Made by a program: the position numbers and the translations under genes
Shown: positions 16,217 through 48,544 of the stretch, one piece after another
Layout of the letters: every line of letters begins with the position of its first letter
Numbering within the stretch: the stretch's first letter is position 1
Source: Acidobacteriota bacterium
GTDB taxonomy: Bacteria > Acidobacteriota > Thermoanaerobaculia > Gp7-AA8
Length of the DNA: 64,000 nucleotides
Direction: 5' to 3'
Assembly (NCBI GenBank): GCA_019244185.1
Contig: JAFATB010000014.1
Location: forward strand, 416,001-480,000
The notes under the pieces: model-generated
Seen by the model: only the letters and a program-made list of their open reading frames with translations
Told to the model about the DNA's origin: nothing
The model's database searches: none

Positions 16217-16251
16217 GAGTAATTCCTTTCGCGATTCGCTGCCCGCGCTTG

Positions 16252-18123: not shown

Positions 18124-18135
18124 CGCGCGCCGCCG

Positions 18136-18615: not shown

Positions 18616-18626
18616 GCGTTTCCTCT

Positions 18627-19628: not shown

Positions 19629-19642
19629 GCGGCGCCCTTGTA

Positions 19643-21087: not shown

Positions 21088-21142
21088 CGCGCGGATGTTA
21101 TGCAAAGCGAGTTCCGTTGGGAAGCGGAATGCCTTGAAACAC

Positions 21143-21172
21143 GACGAGCCGCGAGAAGAATCGCGGCTCGTC
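21143..21172 (-). terminator. stem-loop downstream of the DUF465-like gene
   Basis: 12-bp perfect stem GACGAGCCGCGA/TCGCGGCTCGTC with a 6-nt loop; only a weak U-tract on minus. Confidence 0.55.
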
Positions 21173-21233
21173 TGGCGGATGTCAGGTTGTGACTGCGGAT
21201 GTGATGGCGGGGCCGGCGCGTGCCGCGCGGGTC

Positions 21234-21473
21234 TTACGCGACCGCGTGCTGGCCGGCTTCGTACGAGCGCATGCGCTCGGCCATCTGGTCCTTCAGGTGG
21301 AGCTTCCGCTTCTTCAAATGTTTCTCTTCGATCTCTTCGTCGTTCGTGATGTCGCTCTTGGTCGTCAGCTCGTGCAGCCGGTGCTCGCATTGGCGATGCT
21401 CTTCGGCCCACTGCCGGAACTCGGGATCCTGATCGGCGAGAATGTTTTGAATGTCAGCGGTCTGATTCGACAT
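21234..21473 (-). CDS. DUF465/YdcH-like small coiled-coil protein
   Basis: DPEFRQ..EEH...LKKRKLHLKDQM; SD AAGGAGGAG. Confidence 0.82.
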   Translation of the reverse strand: MSNQTADIQNILADQDPEFRQWAEEHRQCEHRLHELTTKSDITNDEEIEEKHLKKRKLHLKDQMAERMRSYEAGQHAVA

Positions 21474-21601
21474 CGATGGTCTCCTCCTTCGAAGTTCCAA
21501 TCCGCGAGCAGAATTTTAGCACTCCGCTTGCCAACCGGCGGCGGTTTCGGGCGCGCGTTCAAGTTGTGATGCGTCAGTGACTTGCCCTATGATCCGCGCC
21601 G

Positions 21602-23098
21602 ATGCCGCGCGCTGCCGCGATCGCTCTGGCGATCGTCGTCGTCTCTGTCTTTCTCTCGCCGCTGCAGCGCGAGCTGTACGTCGGCGACGAGACGAAGTAC
21701 ACGGAAGTCGTGCGCGAGATGCGCGCGGGCTCGTTCTTTCTGCCGACGCTGAACGGCACGCCGTTCACGCACAAGCCGCCGCTGCATTTCTGGCTCGTCG
21801 ATCTGCTCACCTATCCGTTCGGCGTCTACTCGATCTGGCCGTTCGTGCTGCCGTCGCTCGCCGCATTCGTGCTGCTGCTCTGGCTGATGCATCGGATGGC
21901 GGGACCGCTCGCCGCGTTCGTCTGTGGGACGTCGCTGATGTTATGGGGCTCGGCGCAGACCGCGCGCATGGACGTGAGCTTCACGGCGCTCCTCGCGCTC
22001 GCGGCGTGGATGGTGGAGCGTTTCTTCGCCGGCGAACGACGCGCGCTGCTGATTGCCGCGATTGCGACCGGGCTCGCGTTTCTGGTGAAAGGTCCGATGG
22101 CACCCGTGATCGTGATCGCACTGTTTGCGTTCGAAGCGCTGCGCCGCCGCGGCGCGCCGCGCGGCAACTACGCGCTCGCCGTCGCGATCATATTGGTCAT
22201 TCCGCTGCTGTGGCTCGTGCCCGCGGTGATGATCGGCGGCGAGCCGTTCTGGCGCGAGATCTTCTACAAGCAGACCGTCGGCCGCGCCGTCGGCGCATGG
22301 GTGCACCGTTCGCCGCCGTGGTTCTACATCGTGCGCGCGCCGGCGACGCTCGCGCCGTGGTTCTTTCTGCTGATCGCGTCGATCGTGGCCATTTACAAAC
22401 GCCGCGACGAGCGGGGGAAGTTCGCCGTGAGCTGGATCCTCGCCGTGCTCGTGCCGTACACGGTGCTCTCGTCGAAGCTCGACGTCTACATGATCGCCAT
22501 GCTGCCCGCGGTGGCGCTGGCGATCGCGCGCGGCGCGGAGGAGCTGTGGGGCAAGCGCGCGAATCTCGTGATGCTCGGCGTGTTCGCGCTGGCGGGGATC
22601 GCCGGCTTCGTCGTGCACGGGAAAGGCCCGGACGGCGCGCTCCTGGCGCTGCCGCGCGTGCGCGTGCTCTTCGCGTTGCTCGTGTTGCTTTCATTCGCGG
22701 CGATCGTCGTGACGCTGCGCTCGACGCTGACGATGTCGACGTTCGCCACGGGACTCGTGCCGGTGCTCGCGTTCGCGTACGCGGCCGTCGCGCTGACGCC
22801 GCTCGCGAACGACCTCGCGTCGACGCGGCCGCTCGTCAATGCCCTGCTGCGCGCGCATGTGGCACCCGAGGATGCGGCGCTGTACGTTTGTCCGCATTTG
22901 TGGGTGCGGGACATGCCGCCGGCGCTCGCACGTGCGAGACAGGTCGACACGGACGATCTGCGCGCGCTGCATCCGCCGCCGCGGCTGATCGTCGCGCGCC
23001 GCAAAGATGCGGACGCGATCGCGGACGTGCTGCGCGGCTATCACAAGGTCGACGAGCTGCGGATGATCGGAAAGTGGTTCGACGTCTATGAGCGCTGA
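21602..23098 (+). CDS. ArnT/PMT-like GT-C glycosyltransferase
   Basis: DETKYTEVVREM, PTLNG.PF..KPPL.FW, ARMD, LVKGP, H..PPWFY; many TM helices. Confidence 0.88.
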   Translation: MPRAAAIALAIVVVSVFLSPLQRELYVGDETKYTEVVREMRAGSFFLPTLNGTPFTHKPPLHFWLVDLLTYPFGVYSIWPFVLPSLAAFVLLLWLMHRMAGPLAAFVCGTSLMLWGSAQTARMDVSFTALLALAAWMVERFFAGERRALLIAAIATGLAFLVKGPMAPVIVIALFAFEALRRRGAPRGNYALAVAIILVIPLLWLVPAVMIGGEPFWREIFYKQTVGRAVGAWVHRSPPWFYIVRAPATLAPWFFLLIASIVAIYKRRDERGKFAVSWILAVLVPYTVLSSKLDVYMIAMLPAVALAIARGAEELWGKRANLVMLGVFALAGIAGFVVHGKGPDGALLALPRVRVLFALLVLLSFAAIVVTLRSTLTMSTFATGLVPVLAFAYAAVALTPLANDLASTRPLVNALLRAHVAPEDAALYVCPHLWVRDMPPALARARQVDTDDLRALHPPPRLIVARRKDADAIADVLRGYHKVDELRMIGKWFDVYER

Positions 23099-31729: not shown

Positions 31730-32485
31730 TCACGGGTAACCGGAGTTCGAGCAGTCGGGGCCGAGGCCGACCGGCGGACCGTCATCGTCGTCGGGTTTGC
31801 CGCCGTGGCAATCGACGGAGTACGACCAGTCCTTCGGGTGGCCGAGGAGCGCTTTCGCGACGCCGAGGTGCAGTGCGAAATGCGGTTTGTCGTGGGGCGG
31901 TCGATCGTCGCTCATGTGCGTGATGGTGACCGTTGCGTTGTTCTTCAGCGGGATCGGTACGCCGCGTCCGGGAGCATCGATCGGCGCGACGATCAACTGC
32001 GGCGACGGCAGCTCGACTTCGAGGTATGCCGCGGTCGCCTGGCCGTAGCATTCGGTGCTCAGCGCTCCGGCGTAAACATCGAACAGCGCGTGGACTCTCT
32101 GGCCGAGCATCACGTCAGGGTCGGCGACGACGGGACGTTGTGGCGTACGTAACCGGGGCAGCTTGCGCCAGCTGTCCGCGCGCAACGGTGTGCCCGAGCC
32201 TGCGAGCCGGAACGCTGCCCGATTGATGCTCCACGTGTACACCGGCTCGTCCGGTTCCAGCGTGAGCAGTGCCGGAATGCGTGGCGGATCGCCGTCGAGA
32301 TCCGCCTGCGCGATCGTGAGCCTCGGGAAGTGATGAGGGATGTCGTCGAACCATTCATCGGATCGTTTCTGCGGGAGCAGAACACGATGGGGGATCTCGC
32401 CGAGCGGCCATTCGCCTTCGTCTTGTGGCCATTCTTCTCGATTGAAGTGCGTGCAGATGCCGATGAACTTCACTGTGATCGCCAC
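31730..32485 (-). CDS. 251-aa hypothetical protein downstream of the CHAT gene, ending GPDCSNSGYP
   Basis: GTG at 32485 after strong SD AAAGGAGGAGG, 14 nt after the CHAT stop; MAITVKFIGICTH...PHRVLLP...HFALH...CSNSGYP. Confidence 0.78.
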   Translation of the reverse strand: MAITVKFIGICTHFNREEWPQDEGEWPLGEIPHRVLLPQKRSDEWFDDIPHHFPRLTIAQADLDGDPPRIPALLTLEPDEPVYTWSINRAAFRLAGSGTPLRADSWRKLPRLRTPQRPVVADPDVMLGQRVHALFDVYAGALSTECYGQATAAYLEVELPSPQLIVAPIDAPGRGVPIPLKNNATVTITHMSDDRPPHDKPHFALHLGVAKALLGHPKDWSYSVDCHGGKPDDDDGPPVGLGPDCSNSGYP

Positions 32486-32499
32486 AACCTCCTCCTTTC

Positions 32500-35400
32500 C
32501 TAAGGCACGTGATTCGTGAGCAGCGCGAGGCTTTGCCAGCCGCGCAATCGTTGGCGTTGCACTTCGCGCAGCGCGTCGATGGGGGCGACGCCGCGTTGGA
32601 GCTCGCGATGGAGTTCGAGGAACAGCGCGTGCGCGTCGGCGTCGGCGACCGGCGTGAGCGTGCCGATGACGTCGCGGGCGCCGGCGGCGGCGAAGGCGGC
32701 GCCGAGGCTGAGCGCGCGGGCGTCGGCGGCATCGGGCGCGCGCAGGGTGTTGCAGCCGGCGAGGACGACGAGCTGCGCGCGGATCGGCGTCGACGCGATC
32801 GAGGCGGCGTGGACGCGGCGTCCGGCGAAGACGAGCGCGGCGCCATCGTCGGGCTCCTCCGCGGTGTGGCCGGCGAGATGGACGACGTCGGCGTGTGAGG
32901 CGGCGTCGACGAACGCGGGAAACGTCGCGCGGCTCGCCTCGACTTCGACCACGTTCGCGTAGAGCGGCCGCAGCTCCGCGATCTCGTTCGCCGCGCCGGG
33001 CAATGCGGCGAATCCCGTTCCGGCGCCGCTCGGGAGCATCACGGCAGCGAGCGAATGCGCGACGCGCGGCGGCGTATTCGGCTGCAGATCGCTCGCGCGT
33101 GCGGCGCGCGCGACGGCGACGCGTTCGACGAGCGCGTGTTGATGCGCATCCTCCAGCGCGGCGAACGGCGTCGTGTCGAGCGGCGGCTCGGCGACGAAGA
33201 CGACCGCGCGGCTCGCGTCGAGCGCGTGCGAGAACGGCCGCACCGCGACGTCGTAGAGATGCTCGCGATCGCCGCGCGCGACATCGAACGAGCTCGCGGT
33301 CACGCAGAACGCGACCACTTCCCGCGGCAGCAGCGCGAGCTCGATGACGGCGGTGTTGCTGCCGCGCAGCCGAGCCTGCAGCGTGACGACGTCGATGTTG
33401 CCGGAGCGCGCTTTCTCCGCGAGCGCGAACGCGCGCTGCCGATCGTCGCGCGCGAGCGCGAGAGCGATCGCCTCGTCGAACAGCGCGTCGCCCGCATCGA
33501 GGACGCCCGTGCCGACGATCGAGCCGGCGACGCGGATCGGATGTCGCGCGAGCGCGGCGATACCGTCGTCGAGATCGCGCGCCGCTCCCGCCGTATCGCC
33601 GCGCGTCATCGCGTTCCTCGCGCGCAGCAGCAGCGCCTCGGGCAGATAGAGCGGCAACGCGCGCGCGCGATACGTCTCGATCGCGCGCGTCAGCGGCGTC
33701 GCCGCATCGCCGCGCAGCGCGAGCGACACCGCGCCGTCGGCGAAATCGACGTCGGCGAGCGCGCGCGCACGCCGCGCGGCGTCGGCGATCCGCGCGGCGG
33801 CGGACGCGGCCTCGCGGACGATGGTCGTCGCCGAGGAATCGCCGAGGCGCGACGCGAGCACGGCCTGGCGCACGAGCGCGTCGGCGACGAGCGCGTCGTC
33901 GCCGGTGTCGCGATCGGCGTCGAGCTCGAGGGCGAGCAGCGCGCGCGCCGGGTCGAGGTGTCCGGCGCGCAGGTCCATGCGGCTCGCGTCGCCGAGGCTC
34001 ACGGCGAGATTGATCGCTTGCCCCTGGGTGCCGAGCGCCGCGAACGAGCGGATGCGCGCCGCCCACGACGCGTCGCGGCGGCCGAGCGACGCGAGCGCAT
34101 CGGCGAGCAGCGCGTCGGCGAACGCCGCGTTGCCGCGTTCGCCGAGGCGATGAAACGCGGACTGCGCGGAATCGAGCAGCGGCTCCGCGCCGCTCCAGTC
34201 GCCGTCGGTCATCGCCGCGAGTCCGAGCTGCCGCTCGACTTGCGCGCGCATCGCCGGATACGCGGGCGGAAGCTCGTCGCGCAACGCGGCGAGCTCCGCG
34301 CGCGCGTCCTGCTGCTGATCGAACGCGGCGCATGCGGCGAAGAGCCGCGCGACGAACGCCATCGGACTGTGCGCGGCTGCGAACGCGCTTGCGGCGCGGC
34401 GCAGTTCCGGCTCGGCATCGCGCGGCTGGCCGCGGCTGTAGACGATGCGCGCGCGGCGATACGTCGCATGCGCGTCGGCGAGTGCGCGCCGTTCGTCGGC
34501 ATTCGCGCGATCGATCGTCGCGACCGCATCGCGCAGGAGTTGCTCGCCTGATTGCGCGGCGATTGCGTTGCCGGACGCGCGGGCGAGCGCGAGCGCGTCG
34601 TCCGCGGCGCGCGTGTCGCCGTGCAGCAGCGCATCCGCCCACTGGCCAAGCCATTCCGCCTCGCCCCACGTGCGGCACTCCTGCGGGAACTCCGCGACGA
34701 ACGCGCGCACCGCGGCGTCGTCGTGCGCGGCGACCGCGCGCGCGAAACGCGGCAGCTCGCGGCGGAAGCGCGACGTGTCGCTCTCGCGCGGCGCGCGCCG
34801 CAAGTGTTCGCGCGCTTCGTTGGCCCACGGCGACGAAGGATCGGCGTCGACGTAACGCTGCCACGCGCGGGCCGCCTCGTTCGCGAGGCCGAGGTGCTCG
34901 AGGATCAGCGCGCGGTTGAAGAGCGCGGGCACGAAACGCGCGTTCACGCGCAGCGCGCGATCGGCGGACGCGAGCGCCTCGCTGAAGAGTGACGTGTGTC
35001 CTTGCGCGGTCGCGGCGGCGTCCTGCGCCGCGGCGAGGTCGCTCCAGATCGCGGGATCGTTCGGCGCGTGTTCGACGGCCGCGCGCAGACGCGCGATCGC
35101 CGCGGACGGATCGTCGACGACGAGCATGGCCACGCCGGCCGCGTGTTGTGCGTCCGCCGACGGCGCGCGCTCGGCGGTTTCGTTCAGTTCGCCGGCGAGG
35201 CCGATGAGCTTCATCGACGCGGTGTCGCGACGCGTCGACGGTCCGCGCTCGGGGCCGCGATACGGCGCCCACGGGAACGCGCCGGAGAGGCGCGCCTCGA
35301 CCGGACGCGCGTCACGCGGCAGCAGCGCGGCGATGCGCGCGAGCGGCGCGCGGCGTTGCAGCGCGTACGGCACCGTCACCAGCAGCGCGAGCATCGCCGC

Positions 35401-35607
35401 CGCGGCGACGGCGAGCCACCAGCGATTCGTCGCCGGCGGCTGCGCGGTGATGCCCTCCTCGTGAAAGGCCTCGTTCGCCGCGTCGATGGTCGCGCGGCAT
35501 TCGGCGCAGCCGTCGAGGTGCGCGACCACGGTCTGCAGTTCGGCGCGCGTCAGCCGGCCTTCGACGAAGGCGGCGAGCGTTCCGGGTGGCGGGTGCGGCG
35601 TCGTCAC
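32500..35607 (-). CDS. zf-HC2 anti-sigma domain + TM + TPR-like repeats + CHAT (caspase-like) protease
   Basis: HLDGCAEC zinc motif, TM WWLAVAAAAMLALLVTV, ALFNRALILEHLG helical repeats, VVHLAGH and LVVLAGCNT dyad, SLGAAF..AG..DVIGTL.PV.D; GTGA overlap with the sigma stop. Confidence 0.9.
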   Translation of the reverse strand: MTTPHPPPGTLAAFVEGRLTRAELQTVVAHLDGCAECRATIDAANEAFHEEGITAQPPATNRWWLAVAAAAMLALLVTVPYALQRRAPLARIAALLPRDARPVEARLSGAFPWAPYRGPERGPSTRRDTASMKLIGLAGELNETAERAPSADAQHAAGVAMLVVDDPSAAIARLRAAVEHAPNDPAIWSDLAAAQDAAATAQGHTSLFSEALASADRALRVNARFVPALFNRALILEHLGLANEAARAWQRYVDADPSSPWANEAREHLRRAPRESDTSRFRRELPRFARAVAAHDDAAVRAFVAEFPQECRTWGEAEWLGQWADALLHGDTRAADDALALARASGNAIAAQSGEQLLRDAVATIDRANADERRALADAHATYRRARIVYSRGQPRDAEPELRRAASAFAAAHSPMAFVARLFAACAAFDQQQDARAELAALRDELPPAYPAMRAQVERQLGLAAMTDGDWSGAEPLLDSAQSAFHRLGERGNAAFADALLADALASLGRRDASWAARIRSFAALGTQGQAINLAVSLGDASRMDLRAGHLDPARALLALELDADRDTGDDALVADALVRQAVLASRLGDSSATTIVREAASAAARIADAARRARALADVDFADGAVSLALRGDAATPLTRAIETYRARALPLYLPEALLLRARNAMTRGDTAGAARDLDDGIAALARHPIRVAGSIVGTGVLDAGDALFDEAIALALARDDRQRAFALAEKARSGNIDVVTLQARLRGSNTAVIELALLPREVVAFCVTASSFDVARGDREHLYDVAVRPFSHALDASRAVVFVAEPPLDTTPFAALEDAHQHALVERVAVARAARASDLQPNTPPRVAHSLAAVMLPSGAGTGFAALPGAANEIAELRPLYANVVEVEASRATFPAFVDAASHADVVHLAGHTAEEPDDGAALVFAGRRVHAASIASTPIRAQLVVLAGCNTLRAPDAADARALSLGAAFAAAGARDVIGTLTPVADADAHALFLELHRELQRGVAPIDALREVQRQRLRGWQSLALLTNHVP

Positions 35608-36434
35608 GTGCGAGACTCTCCTTCCGACTTGGACTGCCGCGGCGGCTCCGGTTTCCCGAGGCCGAGGTCGGGCGCGTCGATCGTCTCGAGCGCGTCGAAG
35701 AGCGTGGCGGCGTCGATGGACGCGGCTTCGAGCGCCTTGCGCAGCCGCGCGAGCAACGCTTCCTGACGGCGATACAGCGGCCGCTGCGGCACGCGCAGCA
35801 TGCGCGAGACGTCGGCGATGCTGACGTTCGAGCCGAAGCGCAATCGGATCAGCACGCGATCTTCCGGCGGCCACGACTCCATCGCCGCGCGGATCGCGTG
35901 CGCCGCGCGCGCGGCGGTGCGCGACGCGTCGCGGGCGAGAGCGCGCGCGTCGGCGGTGTCGGGCGCGGCGACGGCGACCCCATCGTCTTCGAGCACGACC
36001 GCGCGCATGCGCGGCGCGCGCTGCGGCAGGCGCGCGACGAGCGCCTCGAGTCCGGCGCGCGTGAGCTCGGGCTCGAGTCCGCGCGCGAGCGGCAGCACTT
36101 CATCGAGCGGACGGCGGTCGCGCAGGACCAGCGTTTCGACGAGCACCGCGGCCGCGCCGAGGCGCCGTGCTTCCGCCGACGGATGCCAGCGCCCGGTGTC
36201 GTGGATGCGCTGATCGAACAGCATCCGCTGCATGACCACGGTGAGATACGTCGCCACCGACGAACGCTCCTCGAACGCGCGCAGCGCCGCGTAGTCGCTC
36301 TCGATCATCGCCACCTTCACGTCGGACGCAAAATCCTCCGCGTCCGCGTCGGAGAGTCCCGCGCGGCGGCAGAGGCGTACGGCAATCCGGTCGATCAGCG
36401 GCAGCTGCTCCCGAAAGAGCTCCGCGGCTTCCAT
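35604..36434 (-). CDS. ECF-like sigma-70 family sigma factor
   Basis: region 2 (DAEDF...FEERSS..TYL..V..R...D) and region 4 (PPEDRVLIRLRF...IADVSRML....LYRR...LRKAL). Confidence 0.85.
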   Translation of the reverse strand: MEAAELFREQLPLIDRIAVRLCRRAGLSDADAEDFASDVKVAMIESDYAALRAFEERSSVATYLTVVMQRMLFDQRIHDTGRWHPSAEARRLGAAAVLVETLVLRDRRPLDEVLPLARGLEPELTRAGLEALVARLPQRAPRMRAVVLEDDGVAVAAPDTADARALARDASRTAARAAHAIRAAMESWPPEDRVLIRLRFGSNVSIADVSRMLRVPQRPLYRRQEALLARLRKALEAASIDAATLFDALETIDAPDLGLGKPEPPRQSKSEGESRT

Positions 36435-36516
36435 GGGCGTGAACGAAGTGTACGCGGAAGGGTGGAGAGATGGCAGGGTGTCGAGGTGTCCGGCCGAGCT
36501 CGGCTACCATTCGCTC

Positions 36517-38384: not shown

Positions 38385-39074
38385 ATGGACATGAGCGTCG
38401 CGAGCGTCTGCGTCAATCGTCTGGTGTTCGTCCAACTGACGATCGTGGGTCTGCTGCTGTATCCGCTGGTGCTGCTGATGCTGCGGCGGCGCAATGGCCC
38501 GATCGGCGCATCGGTGCTGCCGGCGACGCTCGTGCCGCTGTTCGTCGGCCTCGGCGGAGCGTGGCTCACGCTGTTGAACGTGATGGGAGGCATCGCGGCC
38601 AGCGGGCGTCACAGCATCCTGGTCGTCGCCGCGGGCGTGGCGTCGGCGCTGGCGCTCGTCGTCTACGGCGGCGCGATCTCTTGTCTGGTGAGCGTCACGA
38701 TGTGCGTCTTCGGCCTCCGCACGCGCGCGGACGCCGGCGCGCCGGTAGCGCGCGGCGCGCGAATCGCCGCGCTGGCGACGGTCGCGCTGTTCATCGCCGT
38801 CGCGGGTACGTTCGCGTTCGCCGTGCGCGCGTTCCTCCATGTGACCACACGCCTGCCGATCTGGCCGTACGCGCCGTTGTTCGAAGCGGGATTCGCGTAC
38901 GCCGGCGCGCTCGCGTCGTTCGTCTGGTTCGTCGTCGCGCAGCGGCGCCCAGCCGCGCAGTTGCAGCTGGGACGGCTTGCGATCGCGGGCGCGTGCGCGA
39001 TCGGCTGCGCGATGCTCACCGGGGCGGCGTGGGCGTCGATGAAGATGTTCGCGTCGATTGCAATGTTCGGATAG
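38385..39074 (+). CDS. multi-TM hypothetical protein with a MotA/TolQ/ExbB-like hairpin
   Basis: PLFVGLGGAWLTLLNVM..IAASG....VAAGVASAL resembles ExbB TM2-TM3; about 6 TMs. Confidence 0.55.
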   Translation: MDMSVASVCVNRLVFVQLTIVGLLLYPLVLLMLRRRNGPIGASVLPATLVPLFVGLGGAWLTLLNVMGGIAASGRHSILVVAAGVASALALVVYGGAISCLVSVTMCVFGLRTRADAGAPVARGARIAALATVALFIAVAGTFAFAVRAFLHVTTRLPIWPYAPLFEAGFAYAGALASFVWFVVAQRRPAAQLQLGRLAIAGACAIGCAMLTGAAWASMKMFASIAMFG

Positions 39075-41967
39075 CGGCGTCGAGCTGCGCGTCGGCGTCG
39101 CTCGCCGGATCGCGTTCGACCGCGACGTCCGGCTCGAGTCCGTGACCTTCGAGCAGCCAGCCGCTCTCGTCGTAGAACGGCGCGTTCGGCACGTTCACCG
39201 CGCCGCCGTCGATGAGCGCGGGCGCGCCGTTGAGTCCCGTGAGGCCGCCCCACGTGCGCGAGCCGACGATCGGACCGATGCCGAGCTTGCGGAAGTAGTA
39301 CGAGAAGTTCTCGCCCGCGGAGACGGTGATGTGATTGACGAGGAGCGCCTTCGCGCCCGCGTGCACGCCGAAGCGCGGCGACGGCCACGGCTGGTTGTAG
39401 CGGCCGGCGGCGAAGTTGAGGTCGCGGCGCGCGAGCAGTTCGGCGACCGCCGCGCCGGTCGAGCCGCCGAGGCTCCAGCGCGCGTCGATGATGAGCGCGT
39501 CCTTGTCGAGCTGCGCGTAGAACTGCCGCGCGAGATCGCCGTAGCCGGCGTTCGTGAAGTCGGGGATGTGCACGTAGCCGATGCGGCCGCCGCTCGCGTC
39601 GGAGACGTGCCGCCGATTGGCCTCGATCCACGCGCGCCGGCGCAGTTCATTCTCGGATGCGAGCGGCGTGACGGTGAGGACGCGCGACGACGCGTCGACC
39701 GCCGGATTCGGACCGACGGTCAACTGCACGGACTGGTTCGCGCGGCCAACGAGCGCCGCGTGAAGGTCGCGCGCGACGTCGAGCGGTTTGCCGTCGACGG
39801 CGAGCACGTATTCGCCTTCGCGTGCGTCGTGCAACGGTGAGCGCGCGGCGTCGTCGAACGGCGCGCCTTCGACGATGCGCGTGATGCGGAACGCGCCGCG
39901 CTCGACGGTGAAGTCGGCGCCGAGGGTGGCGGCGTCGTCGGGAGGGCGCGGACCGATGTCGCCGCCGCTCGCGATGTACGCGTGGCCGACGGACGACTCG
40001 CCGATCATCGCGGCGAGCACGAGGTTCACTTCCTCGCGGTTGCGGCAGCGCGCGAGCATCGGCTCGTAGCGCGTCGCGACCGCGTCCCAGTGTGCGAGCG
40101 GTTGCTTCGGCGCGTAGAAGAAGTCGCGATACGCGCGCCACGCGTCGCGGAACAGCTCGCGCCATTCGGCGGCAAGGTCGACGTGCATCGTCATCGACGC
40201 CGTGTCGACATGCGGCTGCGAAACGGTGTCGAGGTCCGTGGAGTCATCGGCGACGACGTTCTCTTTCCGCGCGCGGAGGTCGTAGCTGCGCACCGAGCGC
40301 TTGCCGGCGAGATCGACGAGCGCGTAGAGCGGATTGCCATCGGCGGTGACGGAGAGCGCGACGATCGAGCCGGCTGTCGTCGGCAGGCGCAGCGCGCGGC
40401 GTTCGACGGACGGCATGTCGAGCGCGGCGCCGCGCAGCGGCACGTCGACGATCGTGGCCAGTCCCCGATTGATGATGCGGCTCTGGATCCAGTCGGAGGC
40501 GATGTTGCTGAAGTTGCGGTAGCTGAGGAAGAAGAGATGCTCGCCGGTCGCGTCGAACACGGGCGTCGACGCGTTGAAGGCATCGGCGGTGAGCGGCTGC
40601 GACGCGTTCGTCGCGAGGTCGTAGCGCCAGAGTTGGGTGAGGCGATTCGGCGCGGTCTTCGTGTAGGCGAGCCACGCGCCGTCGGGCGACCAGGCGAGCT
40701 CGGTCGGTTCGACGCCCGCGCTCCACGTCTCGCGATCGACGCTCGTCGTGCGGCGCGTGTCGACGTCGAAGATGACGATGGCGCCGGTTTCGTCGGTGAA
40801 CGCGAGCCGTTTGCCGTCGCGGCTCCAGACGGGGCGGTAGCGGAAGCCGCTCGTGAAGCTCGTGAGCGGCTGCGGCGCGGCGTCGCGTTCGAGATCGCGC
40901 ACGTAGAGCTGGTACTCGCCGGTCGCGTCCGACCAGTACGCGACCGCGCGTCCGTCCGGACGCAGCGAGGCCTCGCGCTCGAACGCGCCGCTCGTCGCGG
41001 TGAGATTGCGCGGTGCGGCGTTCGCGCGCGCGATCCAGAGATCGCCGCGTCCTTCGAGCAGCACGACGCCGTTCGCGGCCTGGCGAAACGTGACGAAGCG
41101 GCTCGCGTCGACGTCGCGCACGAGCGGCGTCGCCAGAATCGTGGCGCGCACGACGGACGAGCGTTCGCCGCGCAGCTCGAGCAGCCGCAGCTCGGGGCCG
41201 AGCGCGAAGACGATCGCGTCGGGACCGATCGACGCATCGCGCACGTCGTATTCGGTGAAGTGCGTGACCTGTCGCCGCGCGTGCGTGCGCGTGTCGTACG
41301 CCCAGACGTTGCGCCGTCCTTCGGCGCCTTCGTCGCTCACGTAGTAGAGCGTCGCGCCGTGCCACATCGGCCGCACGTCGCTGCCGGCCCATTCGGTGAT
41401 CCGCCGCGACTCGCGCGTCTGCAGATTGAACAGCCAGAGATCCGGCGCCGCGCCGCCGCGATAGCCCTTCCAGTTCGCGATCAGCTGATGCGACCAGCGC
41501 GGCGTGTACGCGAGCCACGTTCCGCTCGCGTCGAGGGCGCCGTCGGCGCCGAAGGCGAGCGGCAGTGGACGCGGCAGCTCGCCGCGCGGCGACACGGTGA
41601 AGAGCTGCATCTCGATGTGGCTGAACGAGAGCGCGTTCGTCGAGAAGAGCAGACGATCGTCCGCCGTCCACTGGCAGAGCAGTTGTTCCGACGGCAGGAA
41701 CGTCACGCGCGTGGGCACCCCGCCGCGCACCGGCACCGTATAGATGCTGCCGCTCGTGTACGCGAGCGTCGCGCCGTCGGGACTGAAGCGCGCCGACGAT
41801 TTCTCGCCCGGCGTGTTCGTGACGCGCACGGCCGCGCCGCCGCCGCGCGGGACGAGCCACAGTTGTCCCGCCTCGATGAAGGCCACGTGCGTGCGGCTGA
41901 CGGCGGGATCGTGCGGCAGCGCGAGGAGCGGTGCGGCGAGGAAGAGCAGGGCGAACAGAGTTTTCAC
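39016..41967 (-). CDS. tricorn-like S41 family protease (propellers + PDZ + protease domain), secreted
   Basis: signal peptide, FSPDG/WSPDG repeats, WKGYRGG, AWR..RDFFY, GRIGYVHIPD, IIDAR, SAGE, GSRTWGG, EGHG.EPD. Confidence 0.9.
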   Translation of the reverse strand: MKTLFALLFLAAPLLALPHDPAVSRTHVAFIEAGQLWLVPRGGGAAVRVTNTPGEKSSARFSPDGATLAYTSGSIYTVPVRGGVPTRVTFLPSEQLLCQWTADDRLLFSTNALSFSHIEMQLFTVSPRGELPRPLPLAFGADGALDASGTWLAYTPRWSHQLIANWKGYRGGAAPDLWLFNLQTRESRRITEWAGSDVRPMWHGATLYYVSDEGAEGRRNVWAYDTRTHARRQVTHFTEYDVRDASIGPDAIVFALGPELRLLELRGERSSVVRATILATPLVRDVDASRFVTFRQAANGVVLLEGRGDLWIARANAAPRNLTATSGAFEREASLRPDGRAVAYWSDATGEYQLYVRDLERDAAPQPLTSFTSGFRYRPVWSRDGKRLAFTDETGAIVIFDVDTRRTTSVDRETWSAGVEPTELAWSPDGAWLAYTKTAPNRLTQLWRYDLATNASQPLTADAFNASTPVFDATGEHLFFLSYRNFSNIASDWIQSRIINRGLATIVDVPLRGAALDMPSVERRALRLPTTAGSIVALSVTADGNPLYALVDLAGKRSVRSYDLRARKENVVADDSTDLDTVSQPHVDTASMTMHVDLAAEWRELFRDAWRAYRDFFYAPKQPLAHWDAVATRYEPMLARCRNREEVNLVLAAMIGESSVGHAYIASGGDIGPRPPDDAATLGADFTVERGAFRITRIVEGAPFDDAARSPLHDAREGEYVLAVDGKPLDVARDLHAALVGRANQSVQLTVGPNPAVDASSRVLTVTPLASENELRRRAWIEANRRHVSDASGGRIGYVHIPDFTNAGYGDLARQFYAQLDKDALIIDARWSLGGSTGAAVAELLARRDLNFAAGRYNQPWPSPRFGVHAGAKALLVNHITVSAGENFSYYFRKLGIGPIVGSRTWGGLTGLNGAPALIDGGAVNVPNAPFYDESGWLLEGHGLEPDVAVERDPASDADAQLDAAIRTLQSTRTSSSTPTPPR

Positions 41968-42044
41968 GCCGCGCACCGTACGGAATGAAGTTCGCGTCGC
42001 GATAGAACGCGCTTAAGGCGCTGGAACGCGTTGCGCGCGGCGCG

Positions 42045-42866
42045 TCAACGCCGGCGCACGGCCGCGCGGTACGCGGCGGGCGTCACGTGCATCGCCTCTT
42101 TGAACGTGCGCCCGAAGTGGCTCTGGTCGGCGAAGCCGGCGGCGAGCGCGATGTCGGCGAGCGGCGCATCCGAGGCGGCGAGCTCGCGGCAGGCGAAGTC
42201 GATCCGCAGCTGCCGCACGTACGCGGCGACGCTCGCGCCGTAATGGCGGCGGAACGCCGCCGCGAGATGGACGGGATGCACGCCGGCGGCCGACGCGAGC
42301 TCCGCGAGCGAGAGGTGCGCGACGGGATCTTCGTGGATCCGCGCGCGCACGCCAGAGAGCCAGCGCGGCGCGCGCTGCTCGAGCCGTCGCTCCGTGCGCG
42401 CGGCGTCGGCGAAGAGGCCGAGCACGAGCGCCTCGACCGCCAGCGCGGAGACATCGTCGCCGCGCGTCAGCTCCGTGTGCAAGCGCCGTCCCGCGACGGC
42501 GAATGCGCTGCCGCGATACACGCCGGAAGTATCGAGCGGACGCACGAGCTCGCGGACGCGTGCGAGCCATTGCGGCGGCAGCTCGACGTTGAGGCAGCGT
42601 CCGCCGCCATCCGTGAAGCGATCCGAATGCGGCTCGCCTTCGGGCCGCACGATGACCGCGCCCGGCTCGACTTCGCGCGTGCTTCCGTCGCAGCGCTCGC
42701 GAAAGGTGCCGCCGAGGACGACCACGAGGCAGGCGTACTCGTGCGCGTGCGTGGCGAGCTCCGCGCCGGCGGCGTAGCGCGTCTCGCTGAGCACGAACGA
42801 GCCCGCCGCGCGCGCGCGCACGACCGGTGCGGGGAAGCGGGTGGGCGAGTAGTGCAACGCATTCAT
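42045..42866 (-). CDS. AraC family transcriptional regulator with cupin N-terminus
   Basis: HAHE cupin, GVHPVHL..AFRR, LADIALAAGFADQSHF.RTFK...TPAAYR. Confidence 0.93.
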   Translation of the reverse strand: MNALHYSPTRFPAPVVRARAAGSFVLSETRYAAGAELATHAHEYACLVVVLGGTFRERCDGSTREVEPGAVIVRPEGEPHSDRFTDGGGRCLNVELPPQWLARVRELVRPLDTSGVYRGSAFAVAGRRLHTELTRGDDVSALAVEALVLGLFADAARTERRLEQRAPRWLSGVRARIHEDPVAHLSLAELASAAGVHPVHLAAAFRRHYGASVAAYVRQLRIDFACRELAASDAPLADIALAAGFADQSHFGRTFKEAMHVTPAAYRAAVRRR

Positions 42867-43028
42867 CGTAGCGTGCGCTTCGAAGATTCTGACGGCGCGG
42901 ACGCGAACAGGTTGGGAATGTTTTGGCGCCGTGCAGTTCGTGACACGCGCGTGCGGCTCGTGCTGCACGGGAAAGAAGCACGGTGCCGCTCGTGTCTTTT
43001 CCTGTGCAAGTCCAAGGAGACCGAGACC

Positions 43029-44024
43029 ATGAACACGAACAGGAAGTTGGCAGTTTCAGCGGGAGCGCTGGCGCTCCTGCTGACGACCACCGCCTTCGCC
43101 GACGCGCGCGACAACGACCGCAACCGCGACCATCGCGGCGAGCGCGGCACGTACCAGCGCAGCGGCGAGAACCGCGGCAGCAGCAGTGCGGCAGCGACCG
43201 CAGCGGCGGCGCAGAACGCCGCCCGCGATGCGTTCAACCGGAATCGCGGCGAGCGCGGCACGGCGACCGCGCCGGAAGTGCAGAACAACCGCGGGACGTA
43301 CAACGCCGGCACGTACAACCGCAACGACGCGAATCGCACCACGACGAGCGCCGGCGCGTACCAGAGCAACAGCCGCGGCACGTACGACAACCGTGGCAGC
43401 AACAACCGCGGCAGCGCCGATCGTAACTACGACCGCAACAACGGCAACCGCAACAACGCCAACCGCGGCGTGTACAACGGCGGCACGTACAACCGCGGCA
43501 ACGCGGCGCGCGTGTACCACGACAACGACCGCGTGACGTATTCGGGTCGCGTCCGCTCGTTCTCGCGCGAGCGCGACGGCTACCGCGTGTACCTCGACGG
43601 CGCGCGCGAGTCGTACTGGATTCCGGCCTCGCGCTTCGGCCGCGGTCACGAGCTTCGCATCGGCGCCTCGCTCCACCTCGGCGGCATCTTCCGCGGCGGC
43701 ATCGTGAACGTCGACATCCTCGACTGGCCCGACTACGGCTATGACCCGTACTACGGCGGCGGTGGCTACTACGGCGCCGGCTACGGATACGGCAACATCG
43801 GCGGCGTGGTCGAGCGCGTCGACTATCGCAGCGGGTTCCTCCTGCTCCGCGATACGCGCGACGGCCGCACGTTCGAGGTCGACATGCGCGACACCGTGCG
43901 CGCCAGCCGCGTCGACTTCGGCGACCTCCGCCCCGGCGACTACGTCGAGCTGTCCGGCAGCTGGCTGCGCAACGGCGCCTTCGCCGCCGCGCGCATCGAC
44001 AGCGTCGATACGGGTCGCTACTGA
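43029..44024 (+). CDS. secreted protein with an N/R/G-rich low-complexity region and two small beta domains
   Basis: SD AAGGAG, signal peptide ending AFA, NRGxY-type repeats, GVVERVD...DLRPGDYVELSG. Confidence 0.82.
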   Translation: MNTNRKLAVSAGALALLLTTTAFADARDNDRNRDHRGERGTYQRSGENRGSSSAAATAAAAQNAARDAFNRNRGERGTATAPEVQNNRGTYNAGTYNRNDANRTTTSAGAYQSNSRGTYDNRGSNNRGSADRNYDRNNGNRNNANRGVYNGGTYNRGNAARVYHDNDRVTYSGRVRSFSRERDGYRVYLDGARESYWIPASRFGRGHELRIGASLHLGGIFRGGIVNVDILDWPDYGYDPYYGGGGYYGAGYGYGNIGGVVERVDYRSGFLLLRDTRDGRTFEVDMRDTVRASRVDFGDLRPGDYVELSGSWLRNGAFAAARIDSVDTGRY

Positions 44025-44094: not shown

Positions 44095-45957
44095 TCACGC
44101 GATCGCGCCGAGCCACGTCTCTTTCAACTGCTCGACGTGCGCGCGGTAGTTCGCCATGGCCTCCTCCGCCCGCCCCTCGTCGATCAGCGCGACGCAGCGC
44201 GCGACGAGCGACTCGTACAACTCGCGGAAGAGGCGCGGCGCCTCGGGATGCGCGCGCATCGCGCTGACGATCGCGGGCGCGATGCGGTAGTACTCGCCGA
44301 TCAGCGCGCCGCCGTCGGGAAGCGCGGCGACGTACGCATCGCGGAACGCGCGCAGCGTCTCCAGCTCCCGGCAATCGTCCGGCAGCCCTTTCGCTTCGAC
44401 GCAGGCGGTGGTGAGGAAGCAGCACGAGCAGCAGCAGGCGCTGCTCTGCCTCGGCTGCGGGGGAATCAGCCGCTGTCGTTCGGAGTGGCGTTCCTGCTTC
44501 GGCTTCGGCTTGAAGCTGAAGGACGGCGCTTCGAGGACGTCCAACTTCTTGCGCGTCTGGAGCAGCAGGTACGATTCCGCGGATTTGCTCAGGAGCGCCT
44601 CGAGCGTCTCCTCATCCAACCGTGAGCCGACGTGCTGGAGGAACGCGTCCGGATTCGTGAAGTAGAAGTCGACCAGTTTCTCGCGAGTGAGATTGGTCTG
44701 CTTCATGACGTCGCGCAACACCTGCTGTTCCTCGACGTAGACCCGCTCGCCGTCGTCGGCGCCGCCGCTCGCGAGGACGCGCAAGGTGATCATCTCGGTC
44801 GCGCCTTCGCACGCGGTGCCGCCCCATCGCGCTTTCAGATCGTGCACGGCCATCGCGTGAACGATCTCGTGCACCGCGTAGTGAAGGCGCGGATGCGATT
44901 TGCGGAGGTGCGACGTCCCGTTGGTTTCATAGCCTTTCACCAAGGCGATCCTCGCCGCCTGGTGGGCGATGCCTTCCGGCTTGCTCTGCTGCGCGATCGT
45001 CAAATAGTTCAGCTCGAACTTCCGCTTCGAGAGGATGACGATGTTCTCGATTTCCTGTGGAAACTGATGGATGAACTTGGCCGTCAGTGCGCACTGTTCG
45101 AGCAAGTGCTTCGCGTCGACCGCCAGGCTCTCGACGGTGACGTCGGACTCCACGCCGTGATGCTCCTCGTTCGCGGTGAGGATCTGGCGGAGATGGGACA
45201 CCTCCTCGATCGCCGCCAGCGTCCGCTCGACCAACGACTCTTCGCCGAGTTCGTGGCCGTACGCGCCGATCTCGTCCTTCCAGCGCCCGTACGCGTCCAG
45301 CCATTCGTCGCCGAGGTGACGCCGTGCGTCCTTGTCGGTGATCCGCTGCACGGTGCGCGCGACCTGCCGTCCCATGCGCGCGGCTTCCGCGCCGAGCGCG
45401 CGGTCCTGCACGATGGCGACGCCGCCGCCGAACGGATTCGCGACGCGGCCGCTGCGCTGCTGCACGACGTGCGCGAGCTGGCGGCCGAGCGCGTACGGCG
45501 TGCACTGTCCGGGCGCGAAGTAGACATTGCTGCCATGCGTGAATGCCGTCGCGCCGATCGAGGCCGCGTGCGGTCCGACGTGAACGCGCACGTCGGCGAA
45601 GTTCGCGCGGAACGTCCGCTCGAGCATCTGCCGGACCGGCAGCGGCAGCGCGCGCCCGCCGCCGCGCGGAAACGACGCGAGCTGCACCGGCAGCTGCACG
45701 GCGCCGGAGCGATGCGGCTGCGGGGGAGCGGGAAGGTGCGTGCGCGGCGGCGCGGCGATGCGCGCCGGCTGCGGAACGCGTGACACGGCGGCTGCTTTCA
45801 TCTGCGCGGCCCGCGCTCCTCCGGCGCCGCGCGCGATCGCGTCCTGCACCCACGACGCCGCGCCCGCCGCCATCTTCGGCTGCACCGCGGCGGGAGCGTT
45901 CACAAACCGCGGGAGAGCACCGGGAAAGTGCCCCTGAATCACATTCGCCTGCGCCAT
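44095..45957 (-). CDS. DUF4157 (eCIS core)-type protein with HExxH cargo domain and CFI-box-CTERM-like tail
   Basis: GRALP..VR..LE..F.ANFADVRVH...IGATAFTHGSNVYFAPG...LAHVVQQ; HEIVH...EGATE; CFLTTAC...ELETLRAFRD...G..LI..YY..AP.IV. Confidence 0.85.
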   Translation of the reverse strand: MAQANVIQGHFPGALPRFVNAPAAVQPKMAAGAASWVQDAIARGAGGARAAQMKAAAVSRVPQPARIAAPPRTHLPAPPQPHRSGAVQLPVQLASFPRGGGRALPLPVRQMLERTFRANFADVRVHVGPHAASIGATAFTHGSNVYFAPGQCTPYALGRQLAHVVQQRSGRVANPFGGGVAIVQDRALGAEAARMGRQVARTVQRITDKDARRHLGDEWLDAYGRWKDEIGAYGHELGEESLVERTLAAIEEVSHLRQILTANEEHHGVESDVTVESLAVDAKHLLEQCALTAKFIHQFPQEIENIVILSKRKFELNYLTIAQQSKPEGIAHQAARIALVKGYETNGTSHLRKSHPRLHYAVHEIVHAMAVHDLKARWGGTACEGATEMITLRVLASGGADDGERVYVEEQQVLRDVMKQTNLTREKLVDFYFTNPDAFLQHVGSRLDEETLEALLSKSAESYLLLQTRKKLDVLEAPSFSFKPKPKQERHSERQRLIPPQPRQSSACCCSCCFLTTACVEAKGLPDDCRELETLRAFRDAYVAALPDGGALIGEYYRIAPAIVSAMRAHPEAPRLFRELYESLVARCVALIDEGRAEEAMANYRAHVEQLKETWLGAIA

Positions 45958-46032
45958 CCGCGTACCCCTCCCGCACTTCCTCTGTGGTGGATCGCGGTCA
46001 TTCTACCGCGATGGAAAGGCGGCGGGACGGCG

Positions 46033-46419
46033 TTACTGCGCCCGCACCGCGCGCGCGATCAGCCCGATCCCGCCCGCGAGCAGCACGAGCATCAGGATCG
46101 TGTTGAAGAGGCTCGTCGGACGAAAGTAGATCTCGAGGTTCGTCAGGATTCCCGCAAGGATGATGACCGCGCCGGCGAACGTCAGCAGCCAACCGGCGAT
46201 CGAACGGCCGTTGAAGAACAGCAGGCCGATGCCGAGGAGCAGCGGGATCAGCGAGAGGCCGAAGGCGTTGTAGCCGCCCCAGTGCCAGTAGCCGGACGTC
46301 ACCGTCACCTGCGTCGTCAGCAGATAACCGCCGGCGATGGCCATGCCGAGGCCGAAGAGGAACGTGCCGATGCCGCCGGAAGTCCCGCCCGCGCCGCGGC
46401 GGAAGTCGTGATCCGTCAT
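46033..46419 (-). CDS. small membrane protein (about 4 TM)
   Basis: GAGGTSGG..TF..G, hydrophobic segments; TACAAT 6 nt before the ATG. Confidence 0.8.
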   Translation of the reverse strand: MTDHDFRRGAGGTSGGIGTFLFGLGMAIAGGYLLTTQVTVTSGYWHWGGYNAFGLSLIPLLLGIGLLFFNGRSIAGWLLTFAGAVIILAGILTNLEIYFRPTSLFNTILMLVLLAGGIGLIARAVRAQ

Positions 46420-46571
46420 GCGGCGATTGTAAGTTTCTTAGCGTCCTCTTAGGAAACCGCGCGCCTCCGCGCGCGTCGCCGCGCATCTTTTCCGATCCGC
46501 ATAGCGAACTCTTAGCAACGCGCCCTCCGCGGGATCTCTACATTGCCTCTCGAAGACGAAAGGAGATCCCT

Positions 46572-47561
46572 GTGACGATCACTGCTGACGAAACGACCAC
46601 CACCACGAGCGCGGAGCGCGGCGCCGCCGCGAAGGCGCTCGAGATGATGCTGCTCATCCGCACGTTCGAAGAGAAATCCGCCGAGCTGCGCGCGAAAGGA
46701 CTGTCGCCGAACATGTGCACCTCCGTCGGCCAGGAAGCGAGTGCCGCCGGCGTGATGCGCGCCCTCGGGCCGCAGGACCTCATCCTCACCAATCACCGCA
46801 GCGCCGGCCATCTCCTCGCGCGCGGCGCCGATCCGGGCCGCGTCCTCGCCGAGATCCTCGGCAAGAGCACGGGCTACTGCAAAGGGAAGAGCGGCAGCCT
46901 GCACATCTCCGTCAAAGAGCTCGGCGTCGTGCTGACGTCGACCATCGTCGGCGGCGAGCTCTCGCTCGTCACCGGCGCGGCGCTCTCGCTGGCGATGAAG
47001 AACAGCGGCGCGCTCGCGGCATGCTTCTTCGGCGACGGCGCCGCGTGCGAGGGCATCTTCCACGAGTCGCTCAATCTCGCCGCCGTCTGGAACCTGCCCA
47101 TTCTTTACGTCTGCGAGAACAACCAGTGGCAGGCGTACGTGCACCGCAAGCAGACGATGCTCACCGATCACGTCGCGGAGTGGGCGCGCCCGCTCGGCGT
47201 CGAGGCGATCACCGTCGACGGCAACGACGTCGAGGCCGTGACCGCCGCCGCGCGCGAGGCCGTCGCATACATCCGCGCCACCGGCAAGCCGTTCCTCCTC
47301 GAGACCTACACCTACCGCCAGCGCGGCCACATGGAGCCCGACGATCAGCAGTACGTCGACAGGAACGAGCTCGCGTCGTGGATCGCGCGCGACCCGATCG
47401 CGACGTACGAGGCGCGTCTCGCGCAGCGCGGCGAGCTGACCGGCGACGAGATCGCGGAGATCCGCGAGCGCGCGCGCCTCATCGTCGAGGAAGCGGCCGA
47501 CTTCGCGCTCGCGTCGCCGTATCCCGCTTTCGCCGAACTGACCACCGACGTCTACGCCTGA
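46572..47561 (+). CDS. ThDP-dependent 2-oxoacid/acetoin dehydrogenase E1 alpha-like subunit
   Basis: GQEA, HR..GH, GKSGSLH, GDGA...ENNQW, TYRQRGH; SD AAAGGAG. Confidence 0.9.
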   Translation: MTITADETTTTTSAERGAAAKALEMMLLIRTFEEKSAELRAKGLSPNMCTSVGQEASAAGVMRALGPQDLILTNHRSAGHLLARGADPGRVLAEILGKSTGYCKGKSGSLHISVKELGVVLTSTIVGGELSLVTGAALSLAMKNSGALAACFFGDGAACEGIFHESLNLAAVWNLPILYVCENNQWQAYVHRKQTMLTDHVAEWARPLGVEAITVDGNDVEAVTAAAREAVAYIRATGKPFLLETYTYRQRGHMEPDDQQYVDRNELASWIARDPIATYEARLAQRGELTGDEIAEIRERARLIVEEAADFALASPYPAFAELTTDVYA

Positions 47562-47590
47562 ACCGAAACGCGGAGCTGAAGGAGAACGCC

Positions 47591-48544
<954 letters not shown>

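Follow-up and report, generated by a model that had tools for sequence, protein, structure and literature searches.

A probable DdvS/DdvA-type sigma and anti-sigma factor pair with a dedicated third gene in Acidobacteriota

A 64,000-nt stretch of an Acidobacteriota genome (contig JAFATB010000014.1 of GCA_019244185.1, positions 416,001-480,000; hereafter the window) encodes on its minus strand, at 31730..36434, three co-oriented genes. These are, in order, the gene of a sigma factor of the extracytoplasmic function (ECF) type, the gene of a 1035-aa protein that joins an anti-sigma module to tetratricopeptide repeats (TPRs) and a CHAT protease domain, and a third gene encoding a protein of 251 aa. 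The first two genes very probably form a pair of the type represented by DdvS and DdvA of Myxococcus xanthus, and the third gene is a dedicated partner of the anti-sigma gene. New with respect to the papers searched are the clade, the copy number, the independence from defence islands and a near-obligate third protein whose fold has no match.

The three-gene unit and its conservation

The sigma gene (35604..36434, minus strand, as are all features of the unit) ends in a TGA stop codon (35606-35604) that overlaps the GTG start codon of the anti-sigma gene (35607-35605) as GTGA. The third gene (31730..32485) begins with a GTG at 32485, 14 nt past the TAG stop codon of the anti-sigma gene (32502-32500), and is preceded by the Shine-Dalgarno sequence AGGAGGAGG at 32488..32496. 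This layout bears out an earlier description of the unit made by a model from the letters of the DNA alone (hereafter the sequence-only reading), in which the common orientation, the GTGA overlap and a third gene 14 nt further on behind a Shine-Dalgarno sequence had all been pointed out.

At least 300 full-length relatives of the anti-sigma protein are present in a set of 5.8 billion proteins, with 42-77% identity among the matches listed; among those listed with an organism name, all are from Thermoanaerobaculia or Acidobacteriota. A scan of one genome per species yielded 278 encoded anti-sigma relatives, and the best 80 of these 278 gave 79 loci (L001-L079) that form the basis of the locus counts given here; every open reading frame (ORF) of the 79 loci was translated and then searched with profiles. 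In 78/79 loci the anti-sigma gene is preceded, on the same strand, by a sigma gene of the same family, the two usually overlapping by 4 nt; the exception without a sigma match (L052) is a 4.5-kb contig on which the match to the query begins only at residue 45. Downstream, a third-family gene follows on the same strand in 71 of the 72 loci that hold at least 400 nt beyond the anti-sigma stop codon. The distance between the two genes is -187 to +97 nt in 68/71 loci; in most, the third gene starts no more than a few tens of bases from the anti-sigma stop codon, in some the genes overlap, and a Shine-Dalgarno-like motif precedes the third gene in 54/56 related loci. Because sigma and third genes accompany the anti-sigma gene at these frequencies, the arrangement is beyond chance, and the repeated triads that the sequence-only reading had proposed to look for do occur in related genomes. 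No further gene is conserved around the triad, the largest cluster of flanking genes being present in 9/79 loci.

Several loci depart from the simple order. L005 (5980-8754) is the sole locus with downstream sequence yet no third gene; its anti-sigma gene is cut to 924 aa with an unrelated C-terminus, and looks like a decaying copy. At L074 the scored third gene lies 1 kb off, yet a divergent extra copy that the profile missed, and that ends in CSNNQWP, directly follows the anti-sigma gene. At L023, L038, L056, L071, L074 and L078, the third-family gene is duplicated in tandem after the anti-sigma gene. About 2 kb past the anti-sigma gene of L009 (10612-11984), a third-family gene whose product ends in CSDTRYP shares 22 nt with the end of a separate ECF sigma gene of 180 aa (Sigma70_r2, 6e-7), giving a pair of sigma and third genes with no anti-sigma gene between them; this single case hints at a link of the third protein to the sigma side. 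L032 and L040 are two triads about 11.5 kb apart on one contig (CAVWUH010000002.1), and at L077 (1-3558) a second sigma and anti-sigma pair stands head-to-head with the first.

In Thermoanaerobaculia the family is large and multi-copy. Metagenome-assembled genomes (MAGs) of Thermoanaerobaculia or Acidobacteriota account for 78/79 loci. The sole other label, a Gemmatimonadales MAG, belongs to L052 (DATLWA010000099.1) and may be due to faulty binning or mark a genuine occurrence beyond Acidobacteriota. The 79 loci span at least 43 assemblies, of which at least 17 carry two to six copies (hand count). On one 5.08-Mb MAG contig, six anti-sigma copies share 41-50% mutual identity and their third proteins 21-30%, and each of these paralogues has a closer orthologue in another genome, at, for example, 74% identity. 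Given the low mutual identity and the closer orthologues elsewhere, the paralogues are ancient and maintained in parallel. The presence of many ancient paralogous copies per genome suggests that each triad reads a different cue.

The sigma and anti-sigma proteins and their relation to DdvA

The 1035-aa protein (32500..35607, GTG start) has the build of a DdvA-like transmembrane anti-sigma factor, with a zinc anti-sigma (ZAS) motif, a transmembrane (TM) helix, a linker, a TPR scaffold and a CHAT domain in this order. The ZAS, or zf-HC2, motif occupies residues 11-38 (35494..35577; Pfam PF13490, 7.9e-6) and includes HLDGCAEC at residues 30-37, which supplies H30-x3-C34-x2-C37. Among the sequences with a residue at the position concerned, H30 is kept in 78/79, C34 in 79/79 and C37 in 78/79, and all three ligands are invariant in a 28-sequence family alignment. 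A single TM helix is placed at about residues 62-84 (35356..35424) by a Kyte-Doolittle scan (19-residue mean, threshold 1.6), with a maximum of 2.24; the only other segment above 1.6 is at residue 753, at 1.65. The juxtamembrane linker, residues 85-140 (35188..35355), carries the motif PR-x-AR-x-VE-x-RLSG-x-F-x-WAPYRG. It is followed by N-terminal TPR repeats at residues 147-270 (34798..35169), identified by the Pfam models TPR_9, TPR_14, TPR_16 and TPR_17 and by TPR and PEX5 matches in the PDB, where the first TPRs resemble the PEX5 TPR domain (E ~4e-4, sequence search). The CHAT caspase-like protease domain spans residues 783-1023 (32539..33261; Pfam PF12770, 3.6e-30), with the catalytic dyad encoded at 32866-32868 (H914) and 32752-32754 (C952). 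The dyad is kept in 75/75 sequences with residues at those columns, five truncated rows being gapped. Both the domain order and the intact CHAT His and Cys had been recognised in the sequence-only reading.

The known system closest to this pair is DdvS/DdvA of M. xanthus, described in Nucleic Acids Research in 2018 (PMC6061681) and, with the cryo-electron microscopy structures 8ROT and 8RW5, in Science Advances in 2024 (PMC11506125); statements on it here draw on parts of these two papers. The anti-sigma factor DdvA crosses the membrane once, with its ZAS domain in the cytoplasm, a linker that is long and flexible, and a TPR-CHAT part of ~900 residues in the periplasm; its dyad is H862/C907, and its structure is a dimer with DdvS bound (PMC11506125). 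In the proposed sequence of events, a signal induces CHAT to cut the linker in trans by autoproteolysis, after which RseP cleaves and DdvS is set free (PMC11506125). Among anti-sigma factors with a TPR-CHAT domain, DdvA is described as the only one to have been characterised.

The top PDB match of the 1035-aa protein is DdvA itself (8rot_B), with E 2e-6 when the single sequence is searched and 2.2e-28 with a profile made from the 28-sequence family alignment. The match is colinear over the ZAS motif, the TM helix, the linker, the first TPRs and the C-terminal part of CHAT, while the middle of the protein is not significantly aligned. In the alignment, H914 is paired with the catalytic H862 of DdvA and C952 with its C907 (residue roles from PMC11506125), and the region of the linker motif aligns with the DdvA linker at about residues 100-135 (hand count on the alignment), a stretch that in DdvA just precedes the segment nearest its dyad (PMC11506125). 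On the basis of this homology and the aligned dyad, the first two genes are regarded, with high confidence, as a distant member of a characterised kind. The sequence-only reading had put the unit forward as a candidate new system unless its architecture turned out to be characterised already; for the first two genes it is, as DdvS/DdvA (PMC6061681, PMC11506125), and that part of the claim is given up.

Shared with DdvS/DdvA are the co-oriented sigma gene immediately upstream of the anti-sigma gene, the ZAS motif, single TM helix, long linker, TPR scaffold and C-terminal CHAT domain with a His-Cys dyad, the presence of another gene after the anti-sigma gene in both operons, and the occurrence of more than one pair per genome. 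The DdvS/DdvA class is further marked by a dimeric, arrow-shaped periplasmic domain without the three-helix motif and by RseP-dependent intramembrane proteolysis. The present pair differs in its distant sequence, its Acidobacteriota host, the lack of flanking CBASS (cyclic oligonucleotide-based antiphage signalling system) or CRISPR loci, an extra insert of ~90 aa in the sigma factor, and a third gene that is here near-universal and a member of a defined family. DdvA-like anti-sigma factors are said to occur only in Myxococcota and one Comamonas, with which part 1 of 5 of table S7 of the same paper is consistent (PMC11506125); Acidobacteriota are not mentioned in its main text or in that part of the table. 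Literature searches turned up no paper on this family apart from the DdvA work.

Conservation along the anti-sigma protein is uneven. From 80 aligned sequences, mean column conservation is highest in the first TPRs (0.67) and only slightly lower in the linker (0.65), compared with 0.55 in CHAT and 0.46 in ZAS, the least conserved part. The low value of ZAS is as expected if paralogues need to keep their sigma partners apart; a need for paralogous pairs to avoid cross-talk is also argued by the DdvA authors (PMC11506125). Because the linker is so strongly conserved, it is a candidate for the site-1 (self-)cleavage or docking segment, by analogy with DdvA. As for topology, the ZAS domain must face the cytoplasm to hold the sigma factor and there is one TM helix; therefore the TPR-CHAT part would be periplasmic, as in DdvA, in line with the placement of the protease outside the cytoplasm by the sequence-only reading.

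The partner sigma factor has 276 aa and is identified by the NCBIfam model TIGR02937 (sigma70-ECF) at 52 bits (cut-off 42.9; E 5.9e-14), which places it in the ECF superfamily, and Pfam gives weak Sigma70_r2 and r4_2 matches. Its insert of ~90 aa lies between regions 2 and 4 and is accompanied by a C-terminal tail; the insert is gap-free in an alignment of 73 family sequences, for which the median length is 279 aa. Upstream of the sigma gene lies a short region (36435..36516) shared with a divergent MFS transporter gene, whose start at ~36517 is taken from the ORF translation. Within this region, GCGTACACT at 36447-36455, ~13-21 nt ahead of the sigma ATG, resembles a GCGTAT(C/G)CT box of related loci and is a candidate promoter box. 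Among 76 regions upstream of sigma starts, TATCCT, from the (GC)GTATCCT box, occurs in 19 versus 0.3 expected, at about -30, and a TTTTCC(A) box in 35 versus 1.8 expected. The spacing between the TTTTCC and GCGTATCCT boxes is variable, so that a classic ECF pair of -35 and -10 boxes is not formed. A strict two-box promoter of ECF type, TT[TC]CC-N15-19-[CGT]GTA, was rejected, as it occurs in 6/76 upstream regions versus 1.5 expected and shuffles also reach 6.

The third protein and the proposed switch

The reading frame of the third gene is consistent with its GC content by codon position (0.69/0.48/0.77), and its product belongs to an unnamed family defined by profile search and by an AlphaFold2 model. 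Searched exhaustively with a profile, 1.84 billion cluster representatives yielded 125 full-length family members (163-296 aa) at E<=1e-3, 20 of them at <=1e-10. The window protein has no match in Pfam or NCBIfam, a Pfam search of 60 family members gave only five weak matches in one member each, and the only match among the PADLOC models is at chance level (E 0.0087). Modelled from a 60-sequence alignment, the protein is all-beta, with a predicted local distance difference test (pLDDT) score of 86.8 and a predicted template modelling score (pTM) of 0.87; a model from a two-sequence alignment reached a pLDDT of 30.8 and was discarded. A Foldseek search with the accepted model gave no match at E<=1e-3 in the PDB and BFVD, the best TM-scores being 0.16 and 0.18, and the family profile found nothing above chance among PDB sequences (best E 0.09). 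The ESM Atlas held nothing usable for the window protein; phage fibre-like clusters retrieved there with a central family member were sub-threshold (0.78) and were dismissed as noise. Searches of plasmids with tblastn gave no match to a third-family member or to the anti-sigma factor.

The GC content of the third gene is 0.644, as opposed to 0.72-0.745 for its neighbours in the window, and lies below that of the anti-sigma gene in 56/56 loci. At third codon positions (GC3) it is lower in the window (0.77 vs 0.88-0.89) and about the same as in the anti-sigma gene across related loci (0.79 vs 0.81). Since GC3 is nearly equal across related loci, the low overall value points to amino-acid composition rather than foreign origin.

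The family has a conserved signature. Residues F7, G9, H52, C245 and S246 are invariant in the 60-sequence alignment, and C11, H13, R34, N247, S248 and P251 are near-invariant. The family motif G-P-G-C-S-N-S-x-Y-P sits at the exact C-terminus, where the window protein ends in the heptapeptide CSNSGYP-COOH (residues 245-251; 31733..31753), with N247, S248 and P251 kept in at least 90% of the 60 sequences. A Cys is found at position -7 in 74/74 complete locus copies, and C-[ST]-[NDS]-x-x-[YFW]-[PL] stands at the very end in 65/74.

The third protein is most probably cytoplasmic. A hydrophobic segment above 1.6 is found in 0/60 family members, none of which shows a signal peptide or TM segment; the alignment and the model place the first conserved beta-strand at residues 2-5, such that the fold begins at residue 2; and the gaps between the anti-sigma and third genes are too small for a hidden leader peptide. 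A lipobox or short signal peptide in the N-terminal 'FIGIC' was considered and rejected, as the region is too short, has the wrong -1 residue and is modelled as a buried strand. Lacking a signal peptide, the third protein would be an unlikely substrate of a periplasmic protease. The sequence-only reading had proposed triggered cleavage of either the CHAT protein or its partner with release of the sigma factor: self-cleavage agrees with the published DdvA model and may be carried over to the present family, whereas cleavage of the partner is topologically unlikely.

These features can be assembled into a self-contained, DdvS/DdvA-type trans-membrane signalling operon with a cytoplasmic accessory protein, a proposal that, taken as a whole, is about evenly poised between right and wrong. 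By homology to DdvA, the cytoplasmic ZAS domain of the 1035-aa protein would keep the sigma factor at the membrane, and the periplasmic TPR-CHAT part, judging from the single TM helix and the same homology, would be the sensor. Following the published DdvA model, a periplasmic cue would activate the CHAT dyad, and the conserved juxtamembrane linker would be cut, probably in trans within a dimer. A site-2 protease of the RseP type and cytoplasmic proteases would then clear the remainder, leaving the sigma factor free to transcribe its regulon. The third protein would act on the cytoplasmic side as a stoichiometric accessory that binds the sigma factor and/or the ZAS domain, and may do so through a Cys/His metal site and through its free, invariant C-terminus. 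This assignment of the third protein as a regulator of the sigma/ZAS side is a tentative one, though slightly favoured over its alternatives.

A number of observations weigh against this proposal. Many Arg residues lie directly after the TM helix, and the positive-inside rule alone would give the opposite topology. No solved sigma factor was matched by the single sigma sequence (PDB, E<=0.1), and the sigma profile matched region 4 of SigF only, at 1.1e-3, the DdvS chain being possibly absent from the set searched. CHAT autocleavage is a hypothesis even for DdvA (PMC11506125), and for the present family proteolysis, sigma binding and the regulon are all inferred by analogy. Unlike DdvS/DdvA, the triads lie next to no CBASS or CRISPR locus, as judged from the 42 window ORFs besides the triad and the 133 nearest flanking ORFs of related loci. 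With lengths equalised, the divergence of the third protein correlates with that of periplasmic residues 451-600 at r 0.59 +/- 0.04, versus 0.51 for ZAS and 0.41-0.47 for the sigma factor, differences within ~2-3 standard deviations among genes with one shared history; raw, unequalised correlations track domain length. Last, TPR and PDZ domains recognise features such as an exact and invariant free C-terminus, which would fit a periplasmic partner.

The third protein might instead be the private output of the sigma factor, an all-beta, possibly metal-binding protein that performs the response after the operon is auto-induced on sigma release, and that leaves the switch itself untouched. ECF sigma operons are commonly autoregulated. 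This is stated for ddvS-ddvA, where MXAN_7287, the gene after ddvA, was induced 8.6-fold and ddvA 8.35-fold (PMC6061681, Table 1). The triads have no other conserved neighbour to serve as output, and the third protein diverges faster than its partners, with a mean pairwise distance of 0.74 compared with 0.55 for the sigma factor and 0.44-0.64 for the regions of the anti-sigma protein. However, the tight spacing or overlap with the anti-sigma gene better suits a stoichiometric partner than an inducible effector, every ancient paralogue retains its own third gene though one shared effector would suffice, and an effector whose basal level equals that of its own sensor would never be absent. A role as private output is possible, if somewhat unlikely.

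A role of the module as an anti-phage regulator like DdvS/DdvA, with the third protein as part of the defence response, is unlikely. Activation of the DdvS regulon, by ddvA deletion or ddvS expression, leads to resistance to phage Mx4 (PMC11506125), the CHAT domain has a weak PADLOC match to BovA (1.8e-4), and sensors in many diversified copies whose partner evolves fast would be in keeping with an arms race. Against this, no PADLOC model matches the sigma factor, the third protein matches only at the chance level given above, and the same window and flanking ORFs hold no Cas or CBASS domains, the flanks of related loci consisting of metabolic, transport, kinase and other genes. Even among DdvA-like pairs, only a subset lies near known defence systems (PMC11506125), and the present paralogues are ancient with orthologues across species, unlike typical mobile defence islands. 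A defence role, one of the options left by the sequence-only reading, finds no support in gene context.

Less probable still is a refined form of the idea in the sequence-only reading, in which the periplasmic TPR-CHAT part has the third protein as its ligand, substrate or securin-like inhibitor, the C-terminus of the third protein being docked in the TPR groove and the cleavage or loss of this protein leading to sigma release. TPR domains that read C-termini are well known, PTS1 (peroxisomal targeting signal type 1) being a C-terminal peptide signal; the first TPRs here resemble the TPR domain of PEX5, the PTS1 receptor; the motif, of the C-S-N/D-S/T-x-aromatic-P type, is placed exactly at the C-terminus; and the best divergence correlation is with periplasmic residues 451-600. 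Separase/securin and Csx29/Csx30 are further precedents for a TPR-CHAT protein with a protein partner (PMC11506125), but the want of any signal peptide, TM segment or room for a leader, a fold that starts with the first residues, correlation differences within ~2-3 standard deviations in a single shared history, and a C-terminal motif that may instead complete an internal Cys/His site with C11, H13 and H52 all tell against such a partner. A related and similarly improbable scheme is a three-component proteolytic switch, in which the third protein would be an obligate subunit whose free C-terminus the TPR groove, or else a PDZ-type protease, recognises, and whose loss, modification or cleavage fires CHAT autoproteolysis. 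If true, this switch would be a CRISPR-free counterpart of craspase/Csx30/CASP-sigma with many parallel channels per Acidobacteriota genome, possibly present in Myxococcus too, provided MXAN_7287 belongs to the third family.

Other systems, genomic surroundings and significance

The preferred reading, a DdvS/DdvA-type switch with a cytoplasmic accessory protein, resembles three other systems in part. With the type III-E craspase it shares an operon-linked TPR-CHAT protease, an ECF-type sigma factor, a protein restraining that sigma factor and a 'sense, cleave, transcribe' logic. However, no Cas domain, Cas7-11 included, occurs among the 42 window ORFs scanned besides the triad, and no CRISPR array or crRNA guidance was found; Rfam, which includes CRISPR direct-repeat families, gave 0 matches in the window, where no tandem-repeat scan was made. 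Furthermore, the TPR-CHAT protein here would be membrane-anchored, periplasmic and itself the anti-sigma factor, whereas Csx29 is soluble and cytoplasmic, and the third protein, unlike Csx30, has no similarity to any solved chain and would be in the wrong compartment for a substrate. The CRISPR-independent module of ECF sigma factor, zinc anti-sigma motif, TM helix, TPRs and CHAT domain postulated by the sequence-only reading therefore stands, there being no Cas genes in the scanned window ORFs, while its analogy to Csx29/Csx30 is functional at best, the third protein having no detectable relative among solved structures.

RpoE-RseA-RseB with DegS/RseP is similar in its single-pass anti-sigma factor with a cytoplasmic sigma-binding domain, in its site-1 then site-2 proteolysis and in a co-transcribed third protein that tunes the switch. 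In that system, the C-terminal peptide of outer membrane proteins, Y-x-F-COOH, is read by the PDZ domain of DegS. RseB, however, has a signal peptide and is periplasmic, whereas the third protein here has none and bears no sequence relation to it, and the site-1 protease would here be part of the anti-sigma factor. The ECF54 group likewise combines an ECF sigma factor with CHAT-domain proteins encoded in its conserved neighbourhood (PMC8999054), but ECF54, with CHAT, subtilase and carboxypeptidase neighbours, is described without an anti-sigma factor in the part of that source used here, whereas the present CHAT protein has a ZAS motif.

The neighbours of the triad in the window are housekeeping genes, including a convergent FadE-type acyl-CoA dehydrogenase gene, the divergent MFS transporter gene, RecO, and shikimate and purine genes. 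At 39016-41976 (minus strand), 3 kb from the triad, lies a gene for a 986-aa tricorn-like protease with PD40 repeats and Tricorn C1, PDZ and Peptidase_S41 domains. S41 proteases read C-termini; the tricorn-like S41 gene is not conserved beside triads, and an S41 neighbour occurs at one other locus, L027. A 620-aa ORF at 44095-45957 (minus strand) has an eCIS_core (DUF4157) domain (9.2e-13) and is flanked by ORFs without a Pfam match (45998-46486, 46512-47702 and 47552-48541) and by a 645-aa ORF at 42087-44024 with only a weak DUF5666 match. Further away, an ORF of ~1228 aa at 3471-7157 (plus strand) has a coding-like GC3 of 0.87 and no Pfam match at 1e-5, and the region 14001-22000, with housekeeping genes for SAICAR synthase, an aminotransferase, AhpC and phosphatidylserine decarboxylase, has a GC content of 0.64-0.66 compared with ~0.69 elsewhere.

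Together, these findings indicate that the TPR-CHAT anti-sigma design is abundant in another phylum, where ancient paralogues are kept side by side, in contrast to the narrow distribution described in 2024. Since no tie to defence islands is seen, the module may have a general role in envelope sensing. The conserved linker motif offers a testable candidate cleavage site, and the near-obligate third protein, without a fold match, provides a handle on the control or output of TPR-CHAT anti-sigma factors.

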